Shown in pieces: positions 15,071 to 61,026 of a stretch of DNA of 64,000 nucleotides; the stretch's first letter is position 1, and each line of letters begins with the position of its first letter. Under the pieces are notes generated by a model. That model was not told where the DNA came from. It saw only the letters and a program-made list of their open reading frames with translations, and did no database searches. The position numbers were made by a program, and so were the translations under genes. The DNA comes from Candidatus Nanoarchaeia archaeon (lineage in GTDB: Archaea; Nanobdellota; Nanobdellia; Pacearchaeales; GW2011-AR1), in contig JAQUKY010000006.1 of the NCBI GenBank assembly GCA_028718805.1, forward strand, positions 1,927-65,926. The letters are read 5' to 3'.

Positions 15071-15707
15071 AATCTTTTGTTCTATTTTTTAGTATCTTTT
15101 CTAAGTCTTCTTCTTTTGCGTTTATTGTATTGCTGAGAGTTTTAAATTCTTTTAAAAGCTTTTTAGCTGTTGCAGGTCCTATTCCTGGAAAGGCCTCTAA
15201 AATATACTGTTTTTGTTCTGAAATTGTCTTTGGTATTCTTGAATGAAGGGAAATTTCTGCTGGTTTTTTTAACTGCTGTTTAGCAAATGTAATTAAATAT
15301 TTAGAAGTGTCTTCATAATCTTGAGTGAATATTATTGGGATTTGATAATTGGTTATTATTGAAAGAATAAATCCCCGAATTGCATTTTGATTGAAATCAA
15401 CATCATTTAAATCGCCTTCGAGAATAAGCAGCTGATTTTTATACTGCCTCATTTGTTTTAATTGTTCAATAATTCTTCTGCTTATCATAGATGAAACAAA
15501 ATCCTGAATAGTTTTTCTTTCAATTATTGTATTGCCTATAAGATAATCTCCTATTTTTAATGGCCGAATAATAAGTTCTATTTCTTTATTTTCTGAAAGT
15601 TCAGCAAGAATCATAGAATCTTTTTCATGAATATCTGCGATTATTTTTGATCTAATATGGGGCTTTTCTTCTATTTTGCTTTTTTTGAAAATGTTGTGGA
15701 ATGGCAT
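15048..15707 (-). CDS. ERCC4/XPF nuclease with HhH domain (nuclease half of Hef)
   Basis: GDY...IERKT.QDF nuclease motif; FPGIGPATAKKLL HhH. Confidence 0.9.
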   Translation of the reverse strand: MPFHNIFKKSKIEEKPHIRSKIIADIHEKDSMILAELSENKEIELIIRPLKIGDYLIGNTIIERKTIQDFVSSMISRRIIEQLKQMRQYKNQLLILEGDLNDVDFNQNAIRGFILSIITNYQIPIIFTQDYEDTSKYLITFAKQQLKKPAEISLHSRIPKTISEQKQYILEAFPGIGPATAKKLLKEFKTLSNTINAKEEDLEKILKNRTKDFKRILEN

Positions 15708-23400: not shown

Positions 23401-23772
23401 TTATTTCTTTTGTTTATTTATTTCTTCTTTTACTATGTCTTTTACATCTTTTATTCTTGCAAGCTCTAATGGCTGAAAAATCTGCGCTTGCCTTTCTAAA
23501 ATTTCTAATTCAGACTTTTTTGCAAGATTAGGCATCTCGTTTACCACTCTGCTCATTAATTGTTTGAGATATGAGATTTCAGAACTTATTTGTTTTAATT
23601 GCCTTTTGATTTCAAACTCATGTTTTGCATAATCCTCTTTAGTAGAAATAAGGTTTTCTCCAACCAATAAAATTCTGTCTTTGATTAGTCTTTGTTTTTC
23701 CTCTATTTCATTTAAACGGGTGCTAAATTCAGAAAATAATGAACTTATTGGGTCTTGTTGAGGTTCTGCCAT
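23401..23772 (-). CDS. Hypothetical coiled-coil protein
   Basis: Helical, charged 123-aa ORF, co-oriented with its neighbour. Confidence 0.65.
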   Translation of the reverse strand: MAEPQQDPISSLFSEFSTRLNEIEEKQRLIKDRILLVGENLISTKEDYAKHEFEIKRQLKQISSEISYLKQLMSRVVNEMPNLAKKSELEILERQAQIFQPLELARIKDVKDIVKEEINKQKK

Positions 23773-33147: not shown

Positions 33148-34035
33148 ATGAAAATAACAAAAAGAGCAGAGTTAACGTCAAATCAGTTGATCACAATTAT
33201 AATTTTAATTATAAGTTTTGCTATTATTTTAGCTTTCTTTTTTATATTAAATTTGCATTCAACAATAGACAAAGAAACTTGCAGAAATTCTGTTATAACT
33301 AGGGGAGCTTTGCCAATGGGAAAAGATGCTGTTCAGTTAAAGTGTAAAACTCAAGATGTTTGTTTAAGCATGGGAGGGGATTGTAATGTGCAGAGAAAAG
33401 ACATGGTTACAGTTAAGGTTAGTGATGAAAGCGAGTTAACCAAGGAAATGGTTAATTTGTTATGGGACTGCTGGTGGATGATGGGAGAAGGGAAAGTAGA
33501 TTATATGTCCAGTGGAATGGGTTTTGATGAAACTTATTGTTCAATCTGTAATAAAATTTATTTTGACTCGAAAATTAAAGAAAAATATAAGGATGGAATT
33601 ACTTACAGTTTAATATACAGATATATGCAGTCAACTAAGATACCTGATAAAGATGAAACTTATTTATTTAGTATTTATAAGGTCAACTCATTAGACTCTG
33701 TGAGGAATGGTTTGTTAGAGGGGAAAAATCCTGTTGATATTTATGCTTATAAGATAGACCCATCAAAAGAATATGTTAGTGTTACTGCTATGATTAAAAC
33801 AACAAGCAACTGGGAGATAGCAGGTACTACTATAGGAGGTTTAATTGGAACAGTTGTTGGTTTTTCTGTTCCGGGTTCTCATTGGGTTACTGTGCCTGCC
33901 GGGATAAGTATAGGATCTTCTGTAGGTATGTGGCTTGGGCCTGCAGATATAAAATATATGGTACCAAAATATTTAGAATTTAATGGAAAAGAACTGGAAG
34001 CACTTAACTGCAAGGAATATGTTTCTGAGGGATAA
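33148..34035 (+). CDS. Larger pilin-like protein with C-terminal Gly-rich hydrophobic segment
   Basis: MKITKRA|ELTSNQLITIIILIISF; IGGLIGTVVG...GISIGSSVG. Confidence 0.8.
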   Translation: MKITKRAELTSNQLITIIILIISFAIILAFFFILNLHSTIDKETCRNSVITRGALPMGKDAVQLKCKTQDVCLSMGGDCNVQRKDMVTVKVSDESELTKEMVNLLWDCWWMMGEGKVDYMSSGMGFDETYCSICNKIYFDSKIKEKYKDGITYSLIYRYMQSTKIPDKDETYLFSIYKVNSLDSVRNGLLEGKNPVDIYAYKIDPSKEYVSVTAMIKTTSNWEIAGTTIGGLIGTVVGFSVPGSHWVTVPAGISIGSSVGMWLGPADIKYMVPKYLEFNGKELEALNCKEYVSEG

Positions 34036-34055
34036 AGGGGTTTTGATAAAATAAA

Positions 34056-34433
34056 ATGTTAAGAAAAAATAAAAAAGCAGAATTATTACAGGAAAATGTT
34101 ATTTTTATTGTTTTAAATGTAGCTTTTTTTTCAATTATGATTTTGTTTTTGTATCTGCAATCTTCTTCAATCCACATAAAAGAAGAAGAGACCGCTAAGC
34201 AAATTGCATTATTAATTGATGCAAGTAAGCCTGGAAGCGAGATTGAATTGAATTTGGAAAATTTTTTTGAAAAAATAAAAATAAACAAAGAAAGGTCAAT
34301 TACCATAGATAACAACAAAAATATAGTTGTTGTAAGAGGAACTGAAAATAGTCTTTATGAGTATTCTTATTTTAATGAGGTTAATGTTGAGTACAATCTC
34401 AAGGAAAATAAACTGATTTTGATTGTAAAATAA
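34056..34433 (+). CDS. Pilin-like protein, class III signal peptide
   Basis: MLRKNKKA|ELLQENVIFIVLNVAFFSIMILFLY. Confidence 0.8.
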   Translation: MLRKNKKAELLQENVIFIVLNVAFFSIMILFLYLQSSSIHIKEEETAKQIALLIDASKPGSEIELNLENFFEKIKINKERSITIDNNKNIVVVRGTENSLYEYSYFNEVNVEYNLKENKLILIVK

Positions 34434-34554
34434 AATGGGAAATAAACCAATAATAAATAAAAAACGATATAAGATATGGCAATTGAGACTAGGTCATTGA
34501 TGATTGCTTCATATTAAAATCGTTCAATAAATTACTGATAAAGAACACAAAAAT

Positions 34555-35085
34555 ATGTTAATGAAAAACAAAAAAGCAGATGAAAGAGTTTTAAGCATAT
34601 ACCTATTTTTAATTTATATCATAGTCTGCATTGGGATTGTTTCAGGAGTTGTATTATTTTTTGGTTCGGGGCTTGATGTTAGAGTTGCTGAAGCAGGGGT
34701 TTTAAGCGATAAGGTTATTGGTTGTTTAACAGAACAGGGAAAATTAAATGAAAATGTTTTGAAAGACGATTTTGATTTATTAAAATCATGTAATTTTAAT
34801 TTTAAAGATAATTCTGAGGCGTATAAAGAAGATGAACAGTATGGGGTAAGAGTTGAGTTATATAATTTTGATTCCTGCATTAAAGAAGGAGAACCAAAAG
34901 TTATAAACTGCTCAAATGAGGTTAAAAGAATAGAATCAGGAAGAGAGGATTATCTGGAGTTTTGCGGATTGAGTGGAGATAAAATTCCTAAATGTGATAT
35001 AAAAGAGGCATATCTTTTATCTAATAGAACCCGGGTTTTTATGAGGGTTACGAGTTCAGTCGGAAAGGTAAACAAGAATATTTAA
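34555..35085 (+). CDS. Pilin-like protein, class III signal peptide
   Basis: MLMKNKKA|DERVLSIYLFLIYIIVCIGIVSGVVLFF. Confidence 0.8.
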   Translation: MLMKNKKADERVLSIYLFLIYIIVCIGIVSGVVLFFGSGLDVRVAEAGVLSDKVIGCLTEQGKLNENVLKDDFDLLKSCNFNFKDNSEAYKEDEQYGVRVELYNFDSCIKEGEPKVINCSNEVKRIESGREDYLEFCGLSGDKIPKCDIKEAYLLSNRTRVFMRVTSSVGKVNKNI

Positions 35086-35086
35086 A

Positions 35087-35530
35087 ATGAAAAATAAAAA
35101 TGCAGTTATTGGGGCAACAATGACTTGGGTAGTTGCAACTATGATAATTTTAGTTGTTGTTATTGTTTTTATTTATTCATCTTATGCACTTGCAAAAGAA
35201 AAGAAGATTATTGGTTTTAGTCCCTTAACTTTAGAAGGCGAGCAGTCTTCAAGCATAGATTCAGAGCAGATCTTGTTAGCTTTAATGGAAACAGAATTAG
35301 ATGAGAAAAAAGTAAAAGATTATGTTTCGGCCGGGAATTATGAGGTTTTAAAAGAGAAAATAACCCCTCTTTTAGATGGAATGTCCAATAAAGATAACTG
35401 GAACATGTATATTTATGATTCAAATAAGATTATTAAAATTAAGGGAAATGAACTAGCCAGAACATCAAAATCCTCAATTGTTTTTATTGGAAACAAAAAA
35501 GTTAAATTATTTTCAGATTTAACAGGTTAG
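35087..35530 (+). CDS. Pilin-like protein, class III signal peptide
   Basis: MKNKNA|VIGATMTWVVATMIILVVVIVFI. Confidence 0.8.
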   Translation: MKNKNAVIGATMTWVVATMIILVVVIVFIYSSYALAKEKKIIGFSPLTLEGEQSSSIDSEQILLALMETELDEKKVKDYVSAGNYEVLKEKITPLLDGMSNKDNWNMYIYDSNKIIKIKGNELARTSKSSIVFIGNKKVKLFSDLTG

Positions 35531-35672
35531 AGAGGTAAAATCATTGATAAATAAAACGAAAATCAATAATAACAAAAACTAATGCGCCATGGATGAAAAG
35601 AGTAAGCTTAATCAATTCATCTGCAAGGCGGATAAGTTATGGGGTTATTGAGACAATAAACAATAAATAAAG

Positions 35673-35960
35673 ATGAAAAACAAAAAAGCAGATATTGCAA
35701 TAACCATATTAGTAACAGGAGTCATAGCTCTCTGTATTTTAGCATTATTAATTTTTTATGTCTCTGAAAAAAGACAGGAATCAGAGGGGATTAATTCATT
35801 TTTTTATTTGCAGGAAGTTTATAATCAGGCTGAATCTGCGAGATACTCAGGAGAGGATAATATTGATAATTATGAAAATGTCAGGTATGATAGTGGATTT
35901 GTAGTGGAAAAAGAGTTCCTGGATGGAAATTTAAAGGTAAGATACACCCTTAATCCGTAA
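35673..35960 (+). CDS. Pilin-like protein, class III signal peptide
   Basis: MKNKKA|DIAITILVTGVIALCILALLIF. Confidence 0.8.
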   Translation: MKNKKADIAITILVTGVIALCILALLIFYVSEKRQESEGINSFFYLQEVYNQAESARYSGEDNIDNYENVRYDSGFVVEKEFLDGNLKVRYTLNP

Positions 35961-36002: not shown

Positions 36003-36455
36003 ATGGTGAATAAAAAAGCTCAGGAGATGTCAGTAACCGCGATTATCCTTATTGTCTTGGGAGTGTTTGTCTTAGTTGTTCTTATACTTGGATTTACAAT
36101 TGGTTGGGATAAACTAAAAGAATTGATTATGCCTAGCAATAATATTGCTTCTATTAAAGATTCCTGCAAAATAGCCTGCGCAACTGACCAGACATATAAC
36201 TATTGTTCTGAAAAAAGAGAATTAAAATCTAAAGAAGAAAATTTAAAAGATGTAACTTGTTATTCACTTAATAAAAAGAAGCCTGTTTATGGAATAGAGG
36301 ATTGTAGTGTTGATTGCGGTATTTATGATGACCTTGCTGAAGCAACAGCTGCATGTGCTGAAGAGGGCGAGGAAATGATGTATCTTGATGGAGTTAATGT
36401 AAAGAGCTATGTCTGTAAACTTGGAGATATTAGTGCTAATTCTCCAATGCCTTAA
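36003..36455 (+). CDS. Pilin-like protein, class III signal peptide, Cys-rich
   Basis: MVNKKA|QEMSVTAIILIVLGVFVLVVLILG. Confidence 0.8.
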   Translation: MVNKKAQEMSVTAIILIVLGVFVLVVLILGFTIGWDKLKELIMPSNNIASIKDSCKIACATDQTYNYCSEKRELKSKEENLKDVTCYSLNKKKPVYGIEDCSVDCGIYDDLAEATAACAEEGEEMMYLDGVNVKSYVCKLGDISANSPMP

Positions 36456-36644: not shown

Positions 36645-36656
36645 TGGCGGGGCTAT
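36645..36656 (+). repeat. att-like core TGGCGGGGCTAT, copy 1
   Basis: Exact match; preceded by AGGTTATAACCC, resembling a degenerate T-arm. Confidence 0.9.
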
Positions 36657-36692
36657 CCCCTAGAATGTGATTTTACAGGGCATCCGATTTTT

Positions 36693-37373
36693 TTAGGATG
36701 CAGGTACGGCTTGTTCATTTAGTTCTACTGCTTTTTCTATTAATTTTTTAAAATCCTTTTCAGTTTTATAAAAATCAAGTAGAGGGTCTATGATCCTATT
36801 TACTTCTGGATAAGAGTTTCTAACTTTGTCTAAAGTAATATCAGACCATAATTTACTTAATTCAGGATTAGCAACCATTAAAAGTATGGGGATTGATTCG
36901 TTTACTCCTGTTGATACTGCTTTCGCAGACATTTTCCCTTTTTTGCATACATTAAAATAATGCAAATGAAATAATTCATGAGCGAGTACATATTTCATAA
37001 TTTTTGCAGGCAAAATATTGCTTAAGATCATTTTATTGTATTTTCCATCAAAAATATCTCCTAATCCGGGAACACTCAGGCTAATGTAACATGTATAAGT
37101 TTTATATTTCCAATCAAATCCGGTAAATTCCTTAATCTTTTGGAAATATTCCCCTTCTATATTTTTCCATTCTTTTTTCAATTGCTTTACAAATTCAATA
37201 AATTCTTGTTTTTTATAGCCTTCTTCTATAGCTTTAATTGCAACATCTTTGTCTAGACTTAGTAATCCTAAATGTTCTGGCTTAATTTTTGAAGTCCCAC
37301 AAACTTTGGCAAACTGATGGAGATATTCTAATTCTTTCTCTGTATTTATTTTAAATTTTACAGTTGTTGCCAT
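36693..37373 (-). CDS. Hypothetical zincin-like protein (C1 cargo)
   Basis: AHELFH HExxH motif with downstream NES glutamate. Confidence 0.6.
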   Translation of the reverse strand: MATTVKFKINTEKELEYLHQFAKVCGTSKIKPEHLGLLSLDKDVAIKAIEEGYKKQEFIEFVKQLKKEWKNIEGEYFQKIKEFTGFDWKYKTYTCYISLSVPGLGDIFDGKYNKMILSNILPAKIMKYVLAHELFHLHYFNVCKKGKMSAKAVSTGVNESIPILLMVANPELSKLWSDITLDKVRNSYPEVNRIIDPLLDFYKTEKDFKKLIEKAVELNEQAVPAS

Positions 37374-37446
37374 CTTTTATTAAATAAGGCGCATATTATA
37401 ACCTTTTCTAGGATGCCCATCCTTATCACATTATGGGCTAGTTATC

Positions 37447-37458
37447 TGGCGGGGCTAT
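37447..37458 (+). repeat. att-like core, copy 2
   Basis: Exact TGGCGGGGCTAT. Confidence 0.9.
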
Positions 37459-37485
37459 CTATCATTAGGGTATATTGACGGAACT

Positions 37486-38244
37486 TTATTTTTTTGCGAG
37501 TTTCCACATCATTTGAAAATAAGCTTCGAAAGCTTCTTTTGCATTCCTACTTTTTAAAACAAAAAAAGTCATCTCTTTGGCAAGATTGATTATAACCTTA
37601 TCAGAATAAATGAGGAATATTGCAGGAGTGAGCATATTCTCTGGCATAAACTTAATTTCTACAGGAGGATATCTCTTAAATTCTTTTGCTAAATTTTTAG
37701 CATGATCATTAATAAGAAATTTAGCTTTAATCTTCTTGTCGGATCTTATTTTTTGAAAATAAAGTGCTAGAGGTAAAAACTCTTTTCCAAAATCATAAAC
37801 TCCCATAATATGAACTTCGTCTCCATTATTTAATTCATCAACTAGATTTGTAAATGCAGTCCTTATGCCCCTGTACCCCGAAAAGATAAATGATTCTTTT
37901 TCATCTTCTTTTTCCTGAGAAAAAGCCAAAAGGCTCGGTAAAAGCTCATTTACTTTTTTTTCTTGTTGTTCTATCTCTTTTTTCTTTTCATTAAGAAAAT
38001 TTAATATCATTTTGGGATTTGTTGCTTTGTAATGCTTAACATTTTCTTTTGTAAAATAACTCACTAACCCTTTTTGGATTAGCTTTTCTAAAACTTCGTA
38101 TACTTTAGAGTTAGCGGTTTTTGATTCGTTGATTATTGGCCCAGTTGAGGAAGAACCTAATTTTAGTAAAGAAAGGTACACTTTAATCTCAGACTGGTTT
38201 AATCCAATCTCTTCTAATTGTAATTCTATTTGTGATATGTCCAT
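37486..38244 (-). CDS. TrmB-family transcriptional regulator (C2)
   Basis: IGLNQSEIKVYLSLLKLG wHTH; FQMMWKLAKK end. Confidence 0.85.
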   Translation of the reverse strand: MDISQIELQLEEIGLNQSEIKVYLSLLKLGSSSTGPIINESKTANSKVYEVLEKLIQKGLVSYFTKENVKHYKATNPKMILNFLNEKKKEIEQQEKKVNELLPSLLAFSQEKEDEKESFIFSGYRGIRTAFTNLVDELNNGDEVHIMGVYDFGKEFLPLALYFQKIRSDKKIKAKFLINDHAKNLAKEFKRYPPVEIKFMPENMLTPAIFLIYSDKVIINLAKEMTFFVLKSRNAKEAFEAYFQMMWKLAKK

Positions 38245-38366
38245 AGATAAGTATCTTGTTATTGATATATAAACCTTTTCTTATTACCCCTACCTAAGGA
38301 GGGGATAATATATAAAAAGAAGGAGGTTGTTACTGTATCATAATAAATAAAACAGACAAAAACAAA

Positions 38367-39029
38367 ATGACAAGAGGAATACAAATATTGAAAGAAAATT
38401 ACGGAATGCCTTATGTACTTTTGAAAACATTCTACCAAGTTGGAGAAGGAATGCCAACAAGAGTTACTATCCATGGAAAATATAACATCCAAAATGAAAA
38501 GATAATTATTCCAAAGCCATTCTATGACTTACATGAGGATATTCTTAGAAGAGATGTTAAACCTAAAATTGCAGATTCTATCATAAAAAAAGGTTTCAAT
38601 GTTGCAACAGGGTTGGATGTATATGCTAAGCTTTACTTTATGTCTGAAACAATGAGTGGTAGTTTTCCAATGAATAGTTCTTATGTAATAAAACTGAATG
38701 AAGTTAAGGGATTGGGATTTCTTACAGAAGAAGGATATGCTGGAATGTTTAAAGAAGGTGCATTTACCTGGAGATTTGATAAAGAACATGTTGAGTATAT
38801 TGGAAAATCTTTAAACTTGCTTGATGAAAATTCAAGGGATAAATGGCCCGATTACAGGAGAATTGTTGAATTGCAAGAAAATTTGAAAAAGAGCGATTAT
38901 AAAGCACATGATTTACATAAAGATTTGTCTAATTTAACAACTAAAACCTCTATTCCCTCAAGAATTATAAGATTAGGAGACAATTCTGATTTAGCAAGCA
39001 GAGGACAGCTAGGCATATTCTCTTTTTAA
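38367..39029 (+). CDS. Hypothetical protein (C2 cargo)
   Basis: 220-aa ORF divergent from trmB. Confidence 0.6.
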   Translation: MTRGIQILKENYGMPYVLLKTFYQVGEGMPTRVTIHGKYNIQNEKIIIPKPFYDLHEDILRRDVKPKIADSIIKKGFNVATGLDVYAKLYFMSETMSGSFPMNSSYVIKLNEVKGLGFLTEEGYAGMFKEGAFTWRFDKEHVEYIGKSLNLLDENSRDKWPDYRRIVELQENLKKSDYKAHDLHKDLSNLTTKTSIPSRIIRLGDNSDLASRGQLGIFSF

Positions 39030-39052
39030 CTTATAGTCTATAAAATTAAATA

Positions 39053-39169
39053 TTTGTCACAGCAAGGTGGTCAGATGATTTTATATATAATCCAGAACTA
39101 AGATAATCAACTGAAATAAAAAAAGTTCTGGATTATACCAAGATGGTAGCAAGTCCTGGCGGGGCTATT
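39053..39169 (+). repeat. Shared cassette right-end module, copy 1 (includes core copy 3 at 39157-39168)
   Basis: 113/117 identical to 60910-61026; internal perfect 14-bp inverted repeat at 39086-39099 / 39124-39137. Confidence 0.93.
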
Positions 39170-39227
39170 ATTGAAAAGTAGTGTGCTCTTAATCGTGGTT
39201 TAATAGCAAGCCACAATAAGAAAGAGC

Positions 39228-39540
39228 ATGACTGACATACACAATTTAAATAGAAGATTAGAAGCAACATTGAGGAAAGTGGAAAATTCTTCTATTTCTG
39301 ATAAGAATAAAAAAGCAATTTTTGAGTTTCATAATTTTTGTTTTAGCGAGGGAATTGGGGCTGGAAAAATCCAAAGATATGTTTTTGACCTGGAGAAAAT
39401 AGTTAATCTTCTTAAGAAAGATTTTGATAAATGTAAGAGAGAAGATATTCAGAAAGTTTGTTGGTTTAATAGAAAAGCAAGGTTTCGAGCGACAAGGCTT
39501 TAGCCAGCGAGAAACCTTTAGGAGATTAATTGTGAAATGA
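39228..39540 (+). pseudogene. Truncated, frameshifted tyrosine integrase N-terminal domain
   Basis: DIHNLNRRLE...ISDKNKKAIFEF..FCFSEGIG..KIQRYVFDL...DFDKCKREDIQKV resembles archaeal XerA-like integrase N-termini as I recall them; removing one T near 39457 continues it as VGLIEKQG; no catalytic R-H-x-x-R-Y region follows. Confidence 0.7.
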
Positions 39541-40115
39541 GAGATAAAAATTATTTTCAACTGGATTTTTATGAAGATAAGGAAAGATTTGCAGATTGTT
39601 ATTCTTTAAACCAAATTAAAGACCATGCTAGAATTCAGTATCTTATAAAAAGAGGTTACAGCTTAACAAAACATTATGATTTAAGAATGAAAGAAGAAAT
39701 ATATTTAACAAAAAACCAGAAAACAGAAACTCCACAACATGCATTTTTGGTTTGGGCTTTACTAAAGTATCTAAGAGAGCAAAATTTTCAGGTCTGGAAT
39801 TACAAGACAATTAAGCCAGATATTATTTTTGAAGTTCAAAATAGAAAAATTGCTATTGAAATTGAGACTGGCAAGAATTTAAGGAATAATAGAAAGCAAT
39901 TTTTGGAAAAAATCAATTCACTTTATAAAAATTTTGGCTATAACTGGTTTTTTGTTGTGACAAACAGGGATTTAGTCAAGAAATATAAGAAGTATGGCAG
40001 GACTTACACAAGAAAAAATGTCATAAAAGCAATCTGGAGGTATGTTAATTTTAAGCCAAGAAATTACATGTTAAAACATCGGTTTTGGAAGGGGGGGATG
40101 CAATGGCATTTATAG
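39537..40115 (+). CDS. PD-(D/E)xK-like nuclease-fold protein
   Basis: KPDIIFEVQNRKIAIEIETG; ATGA overlap with the upstream frame. Confidence 0.55.
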   Translation: MRDKNYFQLDFYEDKERFADCYSLNQIKDHARIQYLIKRGYSLTKHYDLRMKEEIYLTKNQKTETPQHAFLVWALLKYLREQNFQVWNYKTIKPDIIFEVQNRKIAIEIETGKNLRNNRKQFLEKINSLYKNFGYNWFFVVTNRDLVKKYKKYGRTYTRKNVIKAIWRYVNFKPRNYMLKHRFWKGGMQWHL

Positions 40116-40177
40116 ACGGAAGAACTTTAAAAAAATACCGCAATTGACACCACATATAATAAAGGGCTAATTTTAAA

Positions 40178-40471
40178 CTAAAATCTCCTTGATATCCCCC
40201 ATTTTTTGCAAATATGGCAATTATTGCTGAAATCTCTTTTTTCAAATTTGCAAAACGTGCTGTTCTTTATAATATTGTTAAAATCCCTAAATTTCATTTC
40301 CTTTATTTCTAAATTATCAATTATTTTTTGAATGTTATCCTCGCACCTTTGTTTATATTCTTCTACAGGAAGCTCAAATTTTTTGCATTTCCAGCAATGC
40401 ATGGCAAAATACATCCCCTTAAGCCTTTTCAATGGCCATTTTGGCCTTTCTTTTATTTCTTGATTAGCCAT
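40178..40471 (-). CDS. Hypothetical Cys-containing protein
   Basis: CWKC and CHIC motifs; overlaps the dubious 5' extension of the opposite-strand ORF. Confidence 0.4.
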   Translation of the reverse strand: MANQEIKERPKWPLKRLKGMYFAMHCWKCKKFELPVEEYKQRCEDNIQKIIDNLEIKEMKFRDFNNIIKNSTFCKFEKRDFSNNCHICKKWGISRRF

Positions 40472-40504
40472 AAAGAATATATATCTATCAGGATATATAA
40501 ATTT

Positions 40505-41497
40505 ATGAGAGATATAATCCAGAGGCTTTTAGCAACAGATAACTCAAAGGAAAGAACAAAACTTCTGGAAAAATTTAGGGAATTTCAATTTGGCAAGAGT
40601 AGAAGAGAGACAGAAAATATTTTATTTGAGATATTTAAGGATGCCAAGCAAATGCTTGAAAATACTAAAGATAATGAGGAAAAAAGAGTTGCCCTAAGAA
40701 CATTAAATGCAATATTTCTTATTTACCCCTCTGAAACCATGGCAGAATTGCTCCAAGTTAAGGCTAAAGAAACTCCGGTTAAAGACAGGGATGTCATGGA
40801 AATAATTGACATTTGTTTGGAATTGCTGGAAGATAATGATGGAAATTTAAGGCTATCAGCTGCATATTTAATTGATCATTTAAGGGGATATATGCCTGAT
40901 TATAATTATGTTGATTTGTTTTATAATCTGCTTTCTTTAAAGAACTCTCCAAAAAACAAAGGCAAAAATAAGAAAACAATTGAATTTTGTTTAAGTAAAA
41001 TATTTTCTCCATTCCTTGAAGCAATTTTGGACGCAAGTTATCCTCTAGAGGTTAAAAAGATGAAAATAAGAGTTCATTCAAAAAATGAGAAGGTTATTAA
41101 CACTGCTATAGATGTCGAACATTTAGCAAATCAAATGGTATCTGAAACTGAAAAATATATTCAAAAAATTCTGGCAATAAGAGGAGAATATCTTCTTGAA
41201 GGCAATTTTATCCCTTACATAGAAAATATTGGTATTTTTCAGATCTTCTATGAAATGCAAAGGCTAAGAGAACTTTATTTAAAAGGAGAAATAAATAAAG
41301 AATTAATGAAAAATTATCTGAACAGCCGAATTTCTATTTTTGCGAATAATAGAATTGATATGCTTGATGGTCTTTCAGAAAGAGAAGAATTCTCATTGGT
41401 TTTAATGGATTTTAATAAGAATCTTGTTGTTAAAGATCTGCAGGAAACATATGATTTTTTAATAAAAATAAATTCTGTAATAGAAAATCTGAGTTGA
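40505..41497 (+). CDS. Hypothetical HEAT-repeat-like protein
   Basis: Probable ATG at 40505; helical repeats such as DNDGNLRLSAAYLI. Confidence 0.55.
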   Translation: MRDIIQRLLATDNSKERTKLLEKFREFQFGKSRRETENILFEIFKDAKQMLENTKDNEEKRVALRTLNAIFLIYPSETMAELLQVKAKETPVKDRDVMEIIDICLELLEDNDGNLRLSAAYLIDHLRGYMPDYNYVDLFYNLLSLKNSPKNKGKNKKTIEFCLSKIFSPFLEAILDASYPLEVKKMKIRVHSKNEKVINTAIDVEHLANQMVSETEKYIQKILAIRGEYLLEGNFIPYIENIGIFQIFYEMQRLRELYLKGEINKELMKNYLNSRISIFANNRIDMLDGLSEREEFSLVLMDFNKNLVVKDLQETYDFLIKINSVIENLS

Positions 41498-41625
41498 AAC
41501 ATATAAATTTTAATGCACATATCCAATAAATTACCTTCATATTCTTTGTTGCTAATGTGTTATCAGGATAATCCAAAGCTTTATATACCTCTGGTGTATA
41601 TTTATACAATAAAGGTGTATAATAA

Positions 41626-42213
41626 ATGATAACTAATAATGAGAGAAAGGTATTGAAGATGCTGTTGTATGCATTTGGCGAGAGTTATTCAATAAACCGC
41701 ATTGCAAAAGAATGTAAGCTAGCTCCAAATGGAGCATTAAAAATATTAAGAAAATTTGAAAAAGAGGGCATATTAGACTTTGAGAATATTGGAAATATGA
41801 AATCCTATAGCTTAAACTTTGAAGATGAAAAAACAAAGAATATTCTAAGATTAGCTTTAATTCCTGAGTTAAAAGCAAGGCTCAAATATCGGGCTGAGGA
41901 TTTAAAGCATTTGAAGGAATTTACAGAGGCTTGCATTATTTTCGGCTCCTATGCTGATTTAAGAAAAGAGCCAAATGATATAGATTTGTTTTTTATTGTT
42001 AAAAACAAAAAATTTAATGATTATAAAAAAGAAAGCCCTTTGGTTTATAAGACAATGCCTATTAAAGTTCATGATATCCTGCAGACAAATAAAGATGTTG
42101 CTGAAAATCTTAAGAAAAAAGATAAGGTAATTATAGAAATACTTAAAACAGGAATAATCCTATGGGGATATGACAAGATAATTAATATTATTGAAAATGG
42201 CTATAAAAAATAA
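41626..42213 (+). CDS. wHTH + minimal nucleotidyltransferase (MNT) antitoxin
   Basis: N-terminal HTH (SINRIAKECKLAPNGALKIL); IIFGSYA...NDIDLFFI GS-DxD motif. Confidence 0.8.
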   Translation: MITNNERKVLKMLLYAFGESYSINRIAKECKLAPNGALKILRKFEKEGILDFENIGNMKSYSLNFEDEKTKNILRLALIPELKARLKYRAEDLKHLKEFTEACIIFGSYADLRKEPNDIDLFFIVKNKKFNDYKKESPLVYKTMPIKVHDILQTNKDVAENLKKKDKVIIEILKTGIILWGYDKIINIIENGYKK

Positions 42214-42697
42214 GTTAAAAGAATGCATGAAAGAAGGCAAAAAGGGAGAAAGGCATAAAGGATTGAGGGAGATAGAACCTTCAATGAAAATTGCACAAGG
42301 ACATATCAGCAAGGCAATACATAACCTTAATGCAATAGACACTTTTCATGATGATGGATATTCAGACTGGAGTGCATCAGCTGCTTTTTACTGCTTGTAC
42401 CATTGTTTGCTCGCTGTAATCTCCAAAAAAGGCTTTGAGTCTAGAAATCAATCCTGTACTTTTGCATTGATTGAAAACATGATTGAGAATAATGGAATAA
42501 GCCTGACAAAAGAAGAGCTTAAAGAAATATTTGACAAAGATGTGACAGAAGATTTGAGCCATAGCGACAAAATTTTAGATATAAGGGAAAATATGCAGTA
42601 TTCAATTAAAACTGCATTAGAAGAGAAAGAGTTCCAGTTTTTAAAACAGAGAACAAAGTTCTTATTTGATAAATTAAGAAAAGAAGTTGAAAAGTGA
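42191..42697 (+). CDS. HEPN-domain protein (toxin partner)
   Basis: DWSASAAFYCLYHCLLA, SRNQSCT, IRENMQY; overlaps the MNT gene. Confidence 0.8.
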   Translation: MKMAIKNKLKECMKEGKKGERHKGLREIEPSMKIAQGHISKAIHNLNAIDTFHDDGYSDWSASAAFYCLYHCLLAVISKKGFESRNQSCTFALIENMIENNGISLTKEELKEIFDKDVTEDLSHSDKILDIRENMQYSIKTALEEKEFQFLKQRTKFLFDKLRKEVEK

Positions 42698-42790
42698 CAT
42701 CACCAAAAAATATAAATACAAGTGCCACTTTAGATAATTTTAATTGATTAATAACTAAAAAAAGAACACGCTACTTTCTGCCCTAGGCAC

Positions 42791-43870
42791 TGGCGGGGCT
42801 ATATACCTTTTTGGCAGATTTTGGGGATATGGACTTACCTTGAATTTATTATTCTCCTCGAGATTCAAGGCTATTTAAAGACTGCTACGGTGAGAGATAG
42901 AATATATTGTGTTGTTAATCATCTATTCGGAGAGCAGATATTGCTTGAAAATCTGGCTCGAACTCTAAGGATTTTTCATCTTCTCCCATATCAATCTTGG
43001 GATTTATCAAGAACTTAGCTATCTCCTTGCGAGCACATTTAGGTTTCATGTTTTTGACTTGGGGTGCTAGAGAAACCAATGCCTTGTAAGCATCATTTGT
43101 AAATGCAGCAAGATAATCCCACGCAGATTCAAACCTACCTAGGGAATCATAATTTTCAGAATGGCAAGTGGTAGTGGCTATTGAATACAATGCTCTAATT
43201 TTCTGGTCACCAGGCAATTTTTCTATTACACATATAAAACCGCTTATATAATCTGCAATTAAACTGTCTTCACGAACTTTGTCATCTTCTTCAATGTAAT
43301 CAAAGTGATAACGCCAAATATTGTTAAATTTTCTTAGCCAGCCATTTGACTCTGGAGAAGATACTGCCATTTGTAAAACTGAAGCAAGATTTGATATATA
43401 TTCAAATGAATGCACTCTTGTATCTATTTCCCTAAGCCCTTCTTTAACTTTTTTATTAAAGTAATCAACCGTATTAGAGAAATTTATATCTGCATTTTCA
43501 TTTGGTTTTACTGGAACAACTGATTTGGAAAAATCTTCTCCATTTGAACAAAGACCTTCAAGCCCTTTGTAACATAATACTCGCTGGCTCATATTGATAT
43601 TAGGGAATTAAGTTAGACTATTTAACATTTATTATAATCAAATAATACATTCAAATAGTTCTGTGTTTTACCCTGTTAATATTTCCTAACGATATATTTT
43701 TTAGATTTTTCCTTCTAGGATTGTCATCTCTCATTGCTTTTATGGGGGTGTATCTTCATATTTATCGATGGTAAACTAAGCTTTTATATCTCTGGTATAA
43801 GAGCTATATCATAGCCCCTTGAATCTGTTTAAAAGTTCTAGTCTTGGCGGGGCTATATACCTTTTTGGCA
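42791..43870. mobile_element. Cassette C4, bounded by a 26-bp direct repeat
   Basis: TGGCGGGGCTATATACCTTTTTGGCA at 42791-42816 and 43845-43870; weak inverted repeat (21/30) at 42803-42831 / 43810-43839. Confidence 0.75.
42915..43592 (-). CDS. Hypothetical protein (C4 cargo)
   Basis: 225-aa ORF without a recognisable motif. Confidence 0.6.
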   Translation of the reverse strand: MSQRVLCYKGLEGLCSNGEDFSKSVVPVKPNENADINFSNTVDYFNKKVKEGLREIDTRVHSFEYISNLASVLQMAVSSPESNGWLRKFNNIWRYHFDYIEEDDKVREDSLIADYISGFICVIEKLPGDQKIRALYSIATTTCHSENYDSLGRFESAWDYLAAFTNDAYKALVSLAPQVKNMKPKCARKEIAKFLINPKIDMGEDEKSLEFEPDFQAISALRIDD

Positions 43871-43919: not shown

Positions 43920-44789
43920 ATGGTGAATGAATTATTTTTAGCAGAGAACTGGTTTTTGATTATCTTAGGATTAATTTGGGTTATTGGGGCAGTTCTCCAA
44001 GATATGAAGAGGAGGGAAGTTGATAACTTATGGAATTTTAGCTTAATTGCTTTTGCACTTGCTTACAGAATTGCTGTCTCTATTTTTATTAATAATTATT
44101 GGTTTGCTTTTAATGGTTTAATTGGATTGTTAATATTTTTGGCTTTAGGCAATCTATTCTATTATGCAAGATTATTTGCAGGGGGAGATGCCAAGCTTAT
44201 GATTGCTTTAGGAACAATCCTTCCTCTAAGTTATTCGTGGATTATTAATTTTAAAATTTTTGGATGTTTTATTTTATTGTTTTTGTTAGGAGGAAGCATT
44301 TATGCTTTGATATACTCTTTTTGTCTGATAATAATTAATTGGAAGAGTTTTAAAAAGGAATTTGTAAAACAATGGAATAATTATAAAAGATTGTTTTTGA
44401 TAGCATTAATTTTTGCTTTAGCCTGGGTTTTAATTGCTTTTTTTATTAGTCAGACAATTATGGTTTTAATTGGATTAATTGTTTTATTATTCCCTGTTTT
44501 GTATATTTTTGCAAAAGCTGTTGAAGAAAGCTGTATGATAAGATTAGTTAAGCCAAACAAGGTTACAGAGGGGGATTGGCTGTATAAAGATATTAGAATT
44601 GGAAACAGATTAATAAAAGCAAATTGGGAGGGTGTTACTAAAAGAGAATTAGAATTAATAAAAAAAGGCAATAAAAAAGTTTTGATTAAATATGGAATAC
44701 CATTCACCCCAAGCTTTTTATTTGGGTTGGTTGGTTTGTTGTTTTTAGCTTGGATGTGGTTCTTTATTCTAAATTTAATCTTTTGGTAA
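43920..44789 (+). CDS. Prepilin peptidase (A24, PibD/ArlK/EppA-like)
   Basis: QDMKRREVDN and GGDAKL catalytic Asp motifs; C-terminal EGDW...EG...PFTP domain. Confidence 0.88.
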   Translation: MVNELFLAENWFLIILGLIWVIGAVLQDMKRREVDNLWNFSLIAFALAYRIAVSIFINNYWFAFNGLIGLLIFLALGNLFYYARLFAGGDAKLMIALGTILPLSYSWIINFKIFGCFILLFLLGGSIYALIYSFCLIIINWKSFKKEFVKQWNNYKRLFLIALIFALAWVLIAFFISQTIMVLIGLIVLLFPVLYIFAKAVEESCMIRLVKPNKVTEGDWLYKDIRIGNRLIKANWEGVTKRELELIKKGNKKVLIKYGIPFTPSFLFGLVGLLFLAWMWFFILNLIFW

Positions 44790-57411: not shown

Positions 57412-58308
57412 ATGAGATTGTTGATGGAAAAAGGAAAGCAGAAAGAATTGCTTAAAAAAGAAAAAGAAAAACGCAAATTAACCTGGAGCAAATTTGCTTT
57501 AATATTGAATATAAGACCCTCTAAGCTAAAAACTTTCTTTAATGAGGAGGTTTTAATGGACAGTTTAACTTTTAATAAATTATTTTTAAAAAAAGAATAT
57601 AAAAAGTTTATTGTGAAAAAATTAGAGAATAACTGGGGGCAATCAAAAGGCGGAAAAAATTCAGATGGTAATTTAAAAGAGATTAAAATTCCGAAGAGAG
57701 CAGAAGAATTAGCAGAGCTTTGGGGAATTCTGCTCGGAGATGGAAATATACAAAAAACTTCTGGATATAAGCTAGGAACATATACTATAAAGGTTACTGG
57801 ACATTCTATATTAGATAGAGAATATCTTATTAAATTTGTTGAACCTTTAATCAAAAATTTGTTTAATGTTAAGATAAGAATATATGAATCAAAGGTTAGT
57901 AACGCACTTAATGTTATTGCAGATAGCAGGAGAATTATTGACTTTTTTGAGGAGAATGAGTTCAAAGCAGGAGATAAAATAAGAAATCAGGTTACAATTC
58001 CTAGTTGGATAAGAAGTAACCATAAATTTTTAGCTGCCTGTTTAAGAGGGCTGTATGATACTGATGGATCTTTTTATAGATTAGGAAACCAGAATAGTTA
58101 CCAGATTAATTTTAAAAATCTTAATAAAACTCTTTTAAAAGACGTTCATGATAGTTTAATTAGTTTGGGTTTAAGCCCTTCAAAAATTAGTGGAAGTATC
58201 CAGATATATATAACAAAAAAATCTGAAATAGCAAAATTTTATAAATTGATTGGATTTCACAATCCTAAGCACCTTAACAAAATAAGAGCTTATTTTAAAG
58301 CCCTGTAG
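57412..58308 (+). CDS. Stand-alone double-motif LAGLIDADG endonuclease-like protein
   Basis: LWGILLGDGNI and LRGLYDTDGSF motifs; N-terminal HTH-like segment; stop codon lies within the tRNA. Confidence 0.8.
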   Translation: MRLLMEKGKQKELLKKEKEKRKLTWSKFALILNIRPSKLKTFFNEEVLMDSLTFNKLFLKKEYKKFIVKKLENNWGQSKGGKNSDGNLKEIKIPKRAEELAELWGILLGDGNIQKTSGYKLGTYTIKVTGHSILDREYLIKFVEPLIKNLFNVKIRIYESKVSNALNVIADSRRIIDFFEENEFKAGDKIRNQVTIPSWIRSNHKFLAACLRGLYDTDGSFYRLGNQNSYQINFKNLNKTLLKDVHDSLISLGLSPSKISGSIQIYITKKSEIAKFYKLIGFHNPKHLNKIRAYFKAL

Positions 58309-58371
58309 TGTAGCGGTCAAGCATTCGGCCCTTTGGAGGCTGAGACCTCGGTTCGAATCCGAGCAGGGCTA
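58299..58371 (+). tRNA. trnQ: tRNA-Gln(UUG), no encoded CCA
   Basis: Cloverleaf: acceptor AGCCCTG/CAGGGCT (A1-U72), anticodon arm CGGCC-CTTTGGA-GGCTG, T arm CTCGG-TTCGAAT-CCGAG. Confidence 0.97.
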
Positions 58372-58399
58372 TCTATCATTATGATATATTGACGGAACT

Positions 58400-59116
58400 T
58401 TATTTCTTTGCGAGTTTCCATAAAGCATTAAACTGGCTTCTAAGAGAATTCGCAATTTCCTTATTTTCGGTAAGTATTGCATAATAAGGAGAAGTCCATA
58501 TAAAATTAGCTACTTTATTTCCATAGACCGCTATTGTTACAGGAGACAGGTATTCTTTAGGCAAATATCTAAACTCAGAATTCTTTGAACTTACTACTAT
58601 TCCTCTTAAATCTTCCCTAACCAAGACTTTTTCATGGATATTATTTTTTACAATTTGATTTAGGAACTGGTGTATGTCTATAGGAAGAACCTGCTGAAAT
58701 CTTCCCTCTTCTCCAAATGCAACATAGTCTTTTTTTGTCCTGATAAGGTCTTTTAATACTGCTTTTAATCCTTCCTTGCCTCTGAATATCTCAACTCTTG
58801 TTTCTTCTTCTTTGGCTTTTGTTAAATTAATAAGCTCTGGCATTACCTCTTGCAATTTTAATTCTTTTTCTTTTAAGTCCTGCAATAATTTTTTGGGATT
58901 AGCAGAAGAAAAGTATTTTACATTATTCTTAATAATGTATGAAACCAATCCTTTTTCAATCAGCTTATTTGTTAACTGATAAATTAAAGTTCTGTCTAAA
59001 TTTGTCTTTTCTGATATTTTTGTAGCAGTGGTTTCTCCTAGCTGAAGAAGGGCAAGGTAAACCTTGCATTCTTTTTCTTCCAATCCCAAATCCTGCAAAA
59101 GCTTTGTCAGTTCCAT
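58400..59116 (-). CDS. TrmB-family transcriptional regulator (cassette B)
   Basis: LGLEEKECKVYLALLQLG; IFRGKEG; FNALWKLAKK. Confidence 0.85.
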   Translation of the reverse strand: MELTKLLQDLGLEEKECKVYLALLQLGETTATKISEKTNLDRTLIYQLTNKLIEKGLVSYIIKNNVKYFSSANPKKLLQDLKEKELKLQEVMPELINLTKAKEEETRVEIFRGKEGLKAVLKDLIRTKKDYVAFGEEGRFQQVLPIDIHQFLNQIVKNNIHEKVLVREDLRGIVVSSKNSEFRYLPKEYLSPVTIAVYGNKVANFIWTSPYYAILTENKEIANSLRSQFNALWKLAKK

Positions 59117-59153
59117 TATAACAATAGAGAATCCTTATTTATAAATTTATTTA

Positions 59154-59176
59154 TTGTTGTTATTTAATCACAACAA
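59154..59176. promoter_or_regulatory. Palindrome TTGTTGT-N9-ACAACAA, putative TrmB operator
   Basis: 7-bp inverted repeat in the divergent promoter region. Confidence 0.5.
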
Positions 59177-59208
59177 ATCTTTAAGTAGTATCTCGTTACT
59201 ATTGGTTT

Positions 59209-59874
59209 ATGGTAAATACAAGAAGTTCGTGTTGTTATGCAAGCGAGAGAGAAGCCACACTATATGGGGCTTTGGCAGAATTAGATGTAAATAAAAAAAG
59301 AGAGCCTGCTCTTATTAAAGTAGTCAAATCTTTTGACTTGTCAATTCTTGATTATGTTAAACCAATCAATAGAAGTCTTCTAGAAATTCAGAATAATTAT
59401 TTACAAAGCGGGAAAAAGGCTAAACATAGAATTGAGGATTATTGGGACAGCAAAGAAATTGATTCTTTTAATGGGTTAGTTAATTGCCTAAATCTCGAAT
59501 CTGACGATTGTGATGCAGTTAGAAAAGGCAAGGTCTTCATAAAAAAGGGAAAAGTGAATGTAATTCCTACTTGCGGTTGGGGGGGAGGAAAATCAAGCGA
59601 TGAGGCAATTAATGGAATGATTTTTGGGGCCGTGTTGGGCGGGGTTTTTTCGTCATTAGGTCAGGCATTTTACCAGATAATCAAAGGAAACTCTATTGAT
59701 ACTTTTAATGTTTATTCTATAGGAAGAACAGCATTGATTGGGGGTTTGATTGTAGGATATATTTTTAGTAGAGGGATGTATATAGAGAGTGCTTTAGTAA
59801 ATCCCTTTGAAAGGATTGCATCAGGACTTGAACAAAGAGCAGATTATGTTTCTAAAAATATATTGGAGTATTAA
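59209..59874 (+). CDS. Hypothetical membrane protein (cassette B cargo)
   Basis: Two Gly-rich hydrophobic segments near the C-terminus. Confidence 0.6.
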   Translation: MVNTRSSCCYASEREATLYGALAELDVNKKREPALIKVVKSFDLSILDYVKPINRSLLEIQNNYLQSGKKAKHRIEDYWDSKEIDSFNGLVNCLNLESDDCDAVRKGKVFIKKGKVNVIPTCGWGGGKSSDEAINGMIFGAVLGGVFSSLGQAFYQIIKGNSIDTFNVYSIGRTALIGGLIVGYIFSRGMYIESALVNPFERIASGLEQRADYVSKNILEY

Positions 59875-59876
59875 AA

Positions 59877-60443
59877 ATGAAATTTAAAAAATTAGTTATA
59901 GGAACTGGAATTGCAGGAGGGCTTGCAGCAATAGTTTTAGGAGGAATTTCTTTGTTTGGGGGGTGGGGGAGTAGGGGAACAAGTGTTGAAAAATGTATTG
60001 GACATTTTAATAGAAAATCTATAGATATTGTAAAAGAAGACATAAGGTTTGGACCAGATCATAAGTATGTGATGATTGATAATAGAGACATAATAGTAGA
60101 TGGTATCATAAAATCAGATGAGGGAAAATATCTTAACATCAGTTCTGGTGCCAGAGTTTTAGTATCTTATGAACCTCGGATATATTCGTTTGTTGAGTAT
60201 TATAAAAAACAACGACTTGAGTCTTTTAAATATTTAGAAAGCAAGGCTGAAATTGATATTTGGGAGAGTACGAGTACGGGATATCCAGCTTATCTATTTG
60301 AAGTAGGACTTGGGTGCATGTGTGTTAAAAAAGGAGCAATAACAAATGATGCGGGAGATAGAGTCTATATTGGAGATGGGTATTTTATAAGACCTGGCAG
60401 TCAAAATAAAGATTCTAATTCTGTTAAGGAGAAAGTAAAATGA
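59877..60443 (+). CDS. Hypothetical exported protein (cassette B cargo)
   Basis: N-terminal signal/anchor. Confidence 0.6.
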   Translation: MKFKKLVIGTGIAGGLAAIVLGGISLFGGWGSRGTSVEKCIGHFNRKSIDIVKEDIRFGPDHKYVMIDNRDIIVDGIIKSDEGKYLNISSGARVLVSYEPRIYSFVEYYKKQRLESFKYLESKAEIDIWESTSTGYPAYLFEVGLGCMCVKKGAITNDAGDRVYIGDGYFIRPGSQNKDSNSVKEKVK

Positions 60444-60751
60444 ACAAAGAAGATATGATTAGTTTTGGGGTGCTTACAGTTATAGCCTTGGCCACATCTA
60501 TGGGTTTTGTCTCGGTTATGAAATATGCCTTAAATCGTAATGGAAAAGAGGCTTTAAATCTTCCACAAAACTCTAACATTAAACAGATTTCACGGCCTGA
60601 AGATTATAATAATGATGGAATATTAGATTATATTGTAAAATATAGAGATGGTAAATCTAAAATTTTTTATGGTAGAGGGTATGATGAAAGAGATATTGAA
60701 GGTAAGGTAGAATGGTACGACTTTGGATCTAGGGCGAGAATCTTAAAATAG
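60440..60751 (+). CDS. Hypothetical membrane-anchored protein with DxNxDG loop
   Basis: N-terminal TM; DYNNDGILD Ca-binding-like motif; ATGA overlap. Confidence 0.6.
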   Translation: MNKEDMISFGVLTVIALATSMGFVSVMKYALNRNGKEALNLPQNSNIKQISRPEDYNNDGILDYIVKYRDGKSKIFYGRGYDERDIEGKVEWYDFGSRARILK

Positions 60752-60770
60752 AATTAAAATTATTTTAAAA

Positions 60771-60908
60771 ATGCAATCAAAACAATTCACCATCACAGAA
60801 AGAATAGCTAAACATGGCAGTCAAGCTATAATTGTAATTCCAAAGATTCTAGAAGATAATCTAAAACCGGGAATTTTGACTCAAGTAACTATTGAAATAC
60901 TAAGTTGA
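60771..60908 (+). CDS. Small AbrB/SpoVT-like (swapped-hairpin) protein (45 aa), not in ORF track
   Basis: MQSKQFTITERIAKHGSQAIIVIPKILEDNLKPGILTQVTIEILS; G-x4-IVIPK pattern. Confidence 0.6.
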   Translation: MQSKQFTITERIAKHGSQAIIVIPKILEDNLKPGILTQVTIEILS

Positions 60909-60909
60909 T

Positions 60910-61026
60910 TTTGTCACAGCAAGGTGGTCGGATGATTTTATATATAACTCAGAACTGAGATAATCAACTGAAATAAAAAAAGTTCTGGATTATACCAAGA
61001 TGGTAGCAAGTCCTGGCGGGGCTATT
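60910..61026 (+). repeat. Shared cassette right-end module, copy 2 (includes core copy 6)
   Basis: 113/117 identical to 39053-39169. Confidence 0.93.

Follow-up and report, generated by a model that had tools for sequence, protein, structure and literature searches.

Arrays of integrated mobile genetic elements (iMGEs) at archaeal tRNA genes are known to reuse one attachment (att) site, to have short att cores and to lose integrases (Krupovic et al. 2019, PMC6563490; review PMC8371274). The median att core of Thaumarchaeota is 17 bp, and cores down to 8 bp have been found (PMC6563490; PMC8371274). In streptococci, cis-mobilizable elements (CIMEs) are flanked by att sites, contain no recombination genes and lie near or in tandem with an integrase-bearing element with the same att; their excision in trans is thought to occur and was sometimes shown (PMC5704250, PMC7563491). 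The tycheposons of Prochlorococcus are presented, in the relevant passages of a preprint, as tyrosine recombinase elements at few tRNAs, where older elements are pushed outward and partial tRNAs are scattered (10.1101/2020.12.28.424599). A 2021 review of archaeal tyrosine recombinases mentions DPANN zero times (PMC8371274). Here, we describe a 64,000-nt stretch of the genome of a Candidatus Nanoarchaeia archaeon (assembly GCA_028718805.1, contig JAQUKY010000006.1, positions 1,927 to 65,926; hereafter the window), in which copies of the 12-mer core TGGCGGGGCTAT, derived from a tRNA-Gln 3' end, delimit an array of four small units, C1 to C4, and one end of a further unit at a tRNA-Gln(TTG) gene. 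We consider it likely that these units are att-flanked, non-autonomous integrative cassettes which accreted in tandem, that the core is the att of tyrosine recombinase elements targeting tRNA-Gln, and that the cassettes are probably mobilised in trans.

With the archaeal iMGE arrays, this locus shares direct repeats of a tRNA 3' end, a short core, reuse of the site, integrase loss and a cargo of defence or toxin-antitoxin type. It differs in that most units measure 0.8-1.7 kb and lack a recombinase, carry paired inverted repeats specific to the unit, and form arrays at two non-tRNA loci. As in CIMEs, att sequences lie on both sides of units C1, C2, C4 and the tRNA-Gln(TTG) unit, none of which has a recombination gene, and unit C3 retains only a 77-aa N-terminal remnant of one. 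CIMEs, however, are bacterial, linked to conjugation and usually read as decayed integrative and conjugative or integrative and mobilizable elements, whereas the present system includes families with the same arms and swapped cargo as well as gene-less mini-units. Tycheposons, as far as the preprint passages on related terms describe them, resemble it in the streamlined genome, successive integrations, scattered partial tRNAs and plug-in cassette cargo; unlike the units described here, they normally carry an integrase and a replication module, and those passages contain no mention of ectopic arrays or of an inverted-repeat arm architecture. Both tandem accretion at tRNA att sites and att-flanked elements devoid of an integrase are known kinds in bacteria and archaea (PMC6563490, PMC8371274, 10.1101/2020.12.28.424599). 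The DPANN setting, the minimal unit size, the pairs of inverted repeats that differ from unit to unit next to a constant core and the ectopic arrays appear to be new, the ectopic location and the co-varying ends being the unusual parts.

An exact scan together with the open reading frame (ORF) map located TGGCGGGGCTAT at positions 36645, 37447, 39157, 42791, 43845 and 61014 of the window, with six of six copies on the plus strand and six of six between genes, as the initial annotation had reported. The chance expectation is 0.05 copies per window of this composition (29-35% G+C), none of 100 shuffles reached six, and a scan of the window with one mismatch allowed found no copies beyond the six exact ones. 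In the whole genome, a 1.175-Mb assembly of 18 contigs that is 87% complete, only 12 exact copies exist, on three contigs: six on contig C6, which is the window, two on contig C8 and four on contig C10. Degenerate copies are few (C8 44446, C10 15196 and C5 38327). A scatter over the genome, named in the initial annotation as the finding that would speak against an array, was thus not observed.

The core corresponds to the final 11 nt of tRNA-Gln(CTG) plus the next base. This tRNA gene on contig C10 (c[43683-43758]) has an A1-U72 pair and reads AGCCCCG...GGTTCGAATCCTGGCGGGGCTA, which bears out the early assignment of the core to the 3' end of an A1-U72 tRNA-Gln. ARAGORN counted 37 tRNAs in the whole genome, and only for tRNA-Gln(CTG) does the terminal 12-mer occur in multiple copies; the terminal 12-mers of the other tRNAs have at most one extra copy, on the same strand and nearby, as would be expected from a single integration. 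For tRNA-Arg(GCG) (C4 42607-42678), which adjoins a paralogous integrase, the only second copy of the 3' 12-mer was seen at C5 103802 on another contig, which points to an element that extends across a contig break or to one more ectopic core. All core copies have only 12-14 nt in common. The extended form CAAGTCCTGGCGGGGCTA, which had been proposed for the core, is present at 39157 and 61014 as the right arm of one unit family and is not general.

The array in the window is made up as follows, and the measured unit lengths agree with the earlier estimates of about 0.8, 1.7, 3.6 and 1.05 kb.

36003..36455, plus strand: last chromosomal gene before the array (150 aa, pilin-like cluster), with a homologue just upstream of the peptidase gene in relative G028
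36645..36656, plus strand: core copy 1, left array edge, exact TGGCGGGGCTAT
36657..37446, plus strand: unit C1, 790 nt, with terminal inverted repeats (TIRs) at 36659-36685 and 37411-37437 (TIR score 11, 0 of 300 shuffles)
36693-37373, minus strand: only ORF of unit C1, 226 aa, family unknown
37447..37458, plus strand: core copy 2, exact TGGCGGGGCTAT
37459..39156, plus strand: unit C2, 1698 nt, family A, TIRs at 37459-37495 and 39114-39149
37486-38244, minus strand: TrmB-like winged helix-turn-helix (wHTH) gene of unit C2 (PF01978, 7e-15)
38367-39029, plus strand: 220-aa ORF of unit C2
39157..39168, plus strand: core copy 3, exact TGGCGGGGCTAT
39169..42790, plus strand: unit C3, 3622 nt, TIRs at 39175-39190 and 42762-42777
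39228-39503: integrase N-terminal stub of unit C3, 91-aa ORF
39537-40115: 192-aa ORF of unit C3
40328-41497: 389-aa ORF of unit C3
41626-42213 and 42191-42697: nucleotidyltransferase/HEPN pair of unit C3 (Polbeta/HEPN matches)
42791..42802, plus strand: core copy 4, exact TGGCGGGGCTAT
42803..43844, plus strand: unit C4, 1042 nt, family B member B1, TIRs at 42807-42831 and 43810-43835
42915-43592, minus strand: single ORF of unit C4, 225 aa
43845..43856, plus strand: core copy 5, right array edge, followed by ATACCTTTTTGGCA (start of a B-type left arm) and then by the prepilin peptidase gene
43920..44789, plus strand: prepilin peptidase (Peptidase_A24), first chromosomal gene past the array, syntenic in seven relatives

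The array is an insertion at an ectopic, non-tRNA site between pilin-like genes and the prepilin peptidase gene. In seven syntenic relatives, the pilin-like genes (homologues of 33148-35960) run directly into the prepilin peptidase gene; neither homologues of the ORFs 36693-43592 at the syntenic site nor a tRNA or core-like sequence in the corresponding gap were found in these relatives. Retention of the unit genes in relatives without the cores, another outcome that had been expected to contradict the array, was not seen. Rfam and ARAGORN detected no tRNA at the head of this array or of the array on contig C8. Three further assemblies, from the same strain or a near-identical one (GCA_028713455.1 and the Logan assemblies of SRR22315506 and SRR22315509), span the array junctions with 99.97-100% identity, so the array is not an assembly chimera. 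The 226-aa protein of unit C1 gave no family match, and PHROGs and PADLOC searches of the cargo proteins yielded nothing besides the nucleotidyltransferase/HEPN-type match. We also noted that the start of a pilin-like gene (34426-34575) shares 93% identity with a segment of contig C8 and 72-90% with about ten other loci; this repeat is probably a class III signal-peptide region conserved within a multigene family.

Imperfect TIRs of 16-37 nt border nine of the nine small units of the genome, and no more than two of 300 shuffles reached the observed score. They were detected by a gapped comparison of the first with the last 45 nt of each unit, which was needed as an ungapped exact-seed search overlooked most of them. 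Their placement is narrow, with 1-7 nt between the left core and the left repeat and 6-13 nt between the right repeat and the right core. When all ends were compared with each other, the best partner of each left end was a right end from its own unit or family; hence, the ends of a unit co-vary. Units bearing an integrase are without extended inverted repeats.

Two families of units share arms while their cargo differs. Family A consists of unit C2 and the tRNA-Gln(TTG) unit, which are 93% identical over the left 58 nt and 96% identical over the right 120 nt. Both open with a minus-strand TrmB-like gene, the two proteins being only 30% identical, and the ORFs that follow are unrelated. Family B comprises unit C4, a unit on contig C8 (42631-44447) and a unit on contig C10 (17055-15210), with a left arm of about 112 nt that is 85-92% identical and a common right arm of about 45 nt; its cargo is a 225-aa orphan, an AAA_14/DUF4143 ATPase, or a 285-aa orphan plus an NYN nuclease. 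The sequence ATAGCCCC in the B right arm was considered as a tRNA 5' end and is better explained as the inverted partner of GGGGATAT in the left arm. About 23 TrmB-like wHTH paralogues were counted in the 1.18-Mb genome, many of them on contig C5; copies of a segment of about 130 nt (60768-60898), 74-87% identical, accompany many of these genes. These loci look like a modular family of a regulator plus a small-protein operon, mostly without flanking cores.

The initial annotation had stated that units C1, C2 and C4 encode no recombinase, and indeed tblastn and Pfam searches gave no integrase match in these units or in the tRNA-Gln(TTG) unit. Unit C3 is different. Positions 39234-39458 match residues 2-77 of an integrase encoded at 11328-12506 of contig C4 (41% identity, E 3e-11), and a 701-nt stretch (39465-40164) shows 91% DNA identity to the region after the tRNA-Arg integrase on the same contig. 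The left (P') arm of this unit resembles arms that adjoin homologues of this second integrase lineage in relatives, where these homologues lie at tRNA-Asp and tRNA-Ser. Because of the integrase stub at its start, unit C3 is not recombinase-free and would represent a decayed autonomous element of a different integrase lineage. The stub starts 60 nt past the core, reads away from it and breaks at 39458-39503, not at a core, unlike the elements with a self-splitting integrase of the SSV type, whose Int(N) and Int(C) parts end at att sites. Similar integrase N-terminal stubs recur as 91-106-aa ORFs matching approximately residues 2-78 in the window, in G006 (L191) and in G022 (L192), the latter two starting about 60 nt after a tRNA; two stubs of G012 (L008, L195) match only about 50 residues. 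These recurring stubs could be stand-alone DNA-binding proteins instead of products of random decay.

An intact tRNA with this 3' end and an intact integrase, both of which the initial annotation had suggested to look for, were found on contig C10. Starting about 100 nt downstream of tRNA-Gln(CTG), a 384-aa ORF (C10 42427-43581) matches PF00589 with 33.8 bits (cut-off 27.1), although a first whole-genome PF00589 scan had missed it. The protein weakly resembles the XerC-like recombinase structure 4a8e, and its identity is 31% with a PF00589-positive protein of contig C2 and 68% with the paralogue beside tRNA-Arg(GCG) on contig C4; the residues R189, R287-H288 and Y318/319 are readable in its sequence. 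These features identify it as a tyrosine recombinase. Eighty homologues with 59-77% identity were fetched from genome assemblies mostly labelled Woesearchaeota, Pacearchaeota and Nanoarchaeota, and 25 of the 80 have a tRNA 78-343 nt upstream of them (Asp, Glu, Ser, Gln, Gly, Tyr, Leu and Met among 12 tRNA species). Extra copies of the tRNA end downstream were present at two of these 25 loci.

The gap between tRNA-Gln(CTG) and tRNA-Glu(CTC) on contig C10 measures 29.9 kb; in relatives of the same genus it spans 95 nt (G012) or 0.9-5.1 kb (four others). In the present genome, the gap holds a 20-kb defence island, which encodes the integrase, an Eco57I-type methyltransferase, an SNF2/PLD helicase and a PD-(D/E)XK nuclease, and four small units; beyond the island follow cores at 23542, 19317 and 17056 and the degenerate core at 15196. 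This array is a classical tandem accretion. It is anchored at its intact target tRNA, as is the tRNA-Gln(TTG) unit, whereas the arrays of the window and of contig C8 are not. In a synteny comparison for the C8 array, the PRPP synthase gene did not adjoin the Lhr gene in relatives, which fits both an insertion and a breakpoint. Between the end of the C10 array and tRNA-Glu lies a sequence of about 167 nt (C10 14284-14450; L056 2284-2450) that is repeated across seven contigs in at least 12 copies, of which about ten are 96-99% identical; this repeat is like a miniature inverted-repeat transposable element.

A link between the arms of the units and this integrase family was provided by a position matrix built only from the post-tRNA sequence of foreign integrase loci. 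Its consensus is approximately TACCTTTTTGGC at +2 or +3, and the 99th and 99.9th background percentiles are 8.6 and 11.6 bits. Five matches after cores of the present genome, all at an identical offset from the core, were scored as follows.

Window 42791: 13.9 bits (TACCTTTTTGGC at +2)
Window 43845: 13.9 bits
Contig C8, 42619: 15.3 bits
Contig C8, 44448: 11.1 bits
Contig C10, 19317: 8.0 bits

In the 20-kb element on contig C10, an inverted copy of the short motif lies 8 nt before the right core (8.7 bits). The tRNA T-arm was also tried as the left integrase half-site and was dropped, as it scored only 3.3 bits with the matrix. A search of IMG/VR for free elements with core and motif found none. 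A metagenome scan gave two contigs, one of which contains core, motif and a 69%-identical integrase without a tRNA, consistent with an attP, and the other a tRNA-Gln with a B-like arm.

The second tRNA-Gln gene of the genome, located in the window, carries a unit of its own.

58299..58371, plus strand: tRNA-Gln(TTG), 3' end GAGCAGGGCTA, acting as attL of a family A unit
58372..61013, plus strand: family A unit, 2.6 kb, TIRs at 58373-58409 and 60971-61006
58400-59116, minus strand: TrmB-like gene of this unit
59209-59874, 59877-60443 and 60440-60751: further ORFs of this unit
61014..61025, plus strand: core copy 6, attR of this unit, of CTG-type sequence with three differences from the tRNA's own end

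The unit is missing between the S15 and RIO kinase genes of relatives, and its flanks are unequal, GAGCAGGGCTAT on the left versus TGGCGGGGCTAT on the right. Such unequal repeats are explained by an element-borne core that crossed over inside GGGCTAT; a target-site duplication fails to explain them. Several observations in relatives and nearby concern the tRNA-Gln genes themselves. Gene-less units of 70-155 nt occur between repeated tRNA-Gln cores directly after the tRNA in G036, G031, G023 and G016 (L002, L003, L004 and L001); the 70-nt unit of G036 consists essentially of just two inverted repeats, and the others hold a T-loop-like GGTTCGA and a long hairpin. In several relatives (L002, L003, L004, L006 and L008), the acceptor stem of tRNA-Gln combines the 5' strand AGCCCTG with the 3' strand CGGGGCT; the resulting U6-G67 wobble would be consistent with a tRNA 3' end that was replaced by element-borne cores. 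A 298-aa ORF with a LAGLIDADG domain (57412-58308) overlaps the first bases of tRNA-Gln(TTG), has no counterpart there in relatives and may be an insertion of the homing-endonuclease type. The orientation of tRNA-Gln(TTG) relative to S15 and RIO kinase in G005, G004, G028 and G019 is opposite to that in G016, G010 and G034, which suggests local inversions at this att-bearing gene.

In the mechanism that we propose, each core copy would be the junction between units that entered successively by conservative site-specific recombination. A circular unit would present one core between two inverted arm sites as its attP, in the order right inverted repeat, about 7 nt of T-loop-like sequence, 12-nt core and left inverted repeat, and an integrase supplied in trans would bind the inverted arm sites. 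For units with the TACCnTTTTGGC motif, the candidate enzyme is the integrase of contig C10, and for unit C3 it would be an enzyme of the second lineage. Strand exchange would take place inside GGGCTAT, which is common to both tRNA-Gln genes. As arrays exist at non-tRNA sites, a core must have been seeded there first, presumably by secondary-site integration or by a multi-unit circle, and later units would have reused it. From the retained co-varying ends, the families with the same arms and different cargo, and the gene-less mini-units, we infer that the small units are probably still mobilised in trans.

Several results weigh against this reading. The arrival of the first core at the non-tRNA sites of the window and contig C8 is unexplained, and no integrase was found within the window, the stub apart, or on contig C8. 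Unit C3 belongs to another integrase lineage, hence one trans-acting enzyme may not serve all units, and the A-type and C1 arms match the motif of the integrase family weakly. A search of 48 further genomes of the genus for B-type arms gave no more than a partial match of 37 nt, so a horizontal spread of B units is not supported. Among the three assemblies of the same or a near-identical strain, which were found by exact-protein look-up, no structural variant of the array was seen. The outer array flanks (core copy 1 is preceded by CTGAATC...ACCC, similar to a B-type right arm) bear only a loose likeness to B-type arms, and as inverted repeats of each other they do not reach significance; a split attP as landing pad for ectopic arrays, for which the flanks speak by eye, was rejected on this account.

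Some of these points would be expected if the array were a fossil, that is, if the units were immobile remnants of once-autonomous elements which lost their own integrases and nothing moved in trans today. The stub in unit C3, the lack of structural variation across the three assemblies and the confinement of B arms to the present genome agree with this explanation, and islands of archaea and bacteria are reported to lose integrases after integration and to contain dispersed partial tRNAs (PMC8371274, 10.1101/2020.12.28.424599). Yet nine of nine small units keep matched inverted repeats at fixed spacing with co-varying cognate ends, three B and two A units share arms at 85-96% identity with a cargo that is unrelated or 30% identical, independent decay would have to delete the integrase at an identical boundary every time, and units of 70-155 nt made mostly of arms exist in relatives. 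We therefore regard a purely fossil array as rather unlikely. Much less probable are site-specific cut-and-paste or casposon-like, possibly miniature, transposons with TIRs, for which the 12-mer would be a target-site duplication. TIRs together with a short direct repeat form the classical signature of a transposon, and tandem integration at tRNA 3' ends, their targets, is known of casposons (PMC6563490). No Cas1, however, was found in the 87% complete genome, the flanks GAGCAGGGCTAT and TGGCGGGGCTAT at tRNA-Gln(TTG) are unequal, and the ectopic arrays carry tRNA sequence where relatives have nothing alike. Moreover, 6-13 nt separate the right inverted repeat from the core, and 25 foreign loci connect the left-arm motif with a tyrosine integrase family.

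Short conserved sites between small gene units also look like a cassette array, and split tRNA genes are known in Nanoarchaeota; a true integron, or structured RNAs such as split tRNA 3' halves or tRNA-like 3' elements of neighbouring genes, were thus considered, and we give almost no credence to them. No integrase gene adjoins the array, its genes lie on both strands according to the ORF map, and the integrated sites are not self-contained palindromes. Rfam revealed no tRNA-like match at the window cores with a cut-off as loose as E = 10, only 11 nt of tRNA are present, and a complete tRNA-Gln(CTG) gene exists. The likeness to integrons is one of outline: small, mostly promoter-poor units, palindromic sites that vary in sequence and are constant in architecture, a common stacking site and a recombinase that is not self-encoded. 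Unlike in integrons, there is no IntI, attI or Pc at the array, the core is constant and derived from a tRNA, the ORFs have both orientations, and the palindrome is split by integration. An intact attC in each cassette was not found; the repeats lie at opposite ends of the unit and would form one palindrome only in the circle. The term integron-like, chosen in the initial annotation, thus stands as an analogy of function and fails for IntI, attI and Pc, for an intact attC and for co-oriented ORFs.

The reading of the units as att-flanked cassettes moved in trans can be carried further. Tentatively, and with more doubt than confidence, one may speculate that DPANN archaea of the Pace- and Woesearchaeota type possess an independently arisen integron-like capture system, in which minimal cassettes would bear a split palindrome on a constant tRNA core, one chromosomal integrase would act in trans, cassettes would start new arrays at a distance from the tRNA and any locus with a core would serve as platform. 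The arms would vary between cassette families and co-vary within a cassette, and the cargo would be optional.

DPANN archaea have tiny genomes, and the acquisition and shuffling of their accessory genes is poorly understood. The genome described here offers a complete set of parts: a target tRNA with a candidate integrase, an autonomous island of 20 kb, nine small cassettes whose ends are defined, and relatives with empty sites for reference. The arrays at non-tRNA loci show how cores can spread, and such cores could become substrates for chromosomal rearrangement. If the cassettes move in trans, a core of about 20 bp with two inverted arm motifs would provide a simple recombination system for archaeal genetic tools. 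Movement of the units in trans, if true, would constitute a compact mechanism of gene capture explaining variation in gene content at the level of strains.

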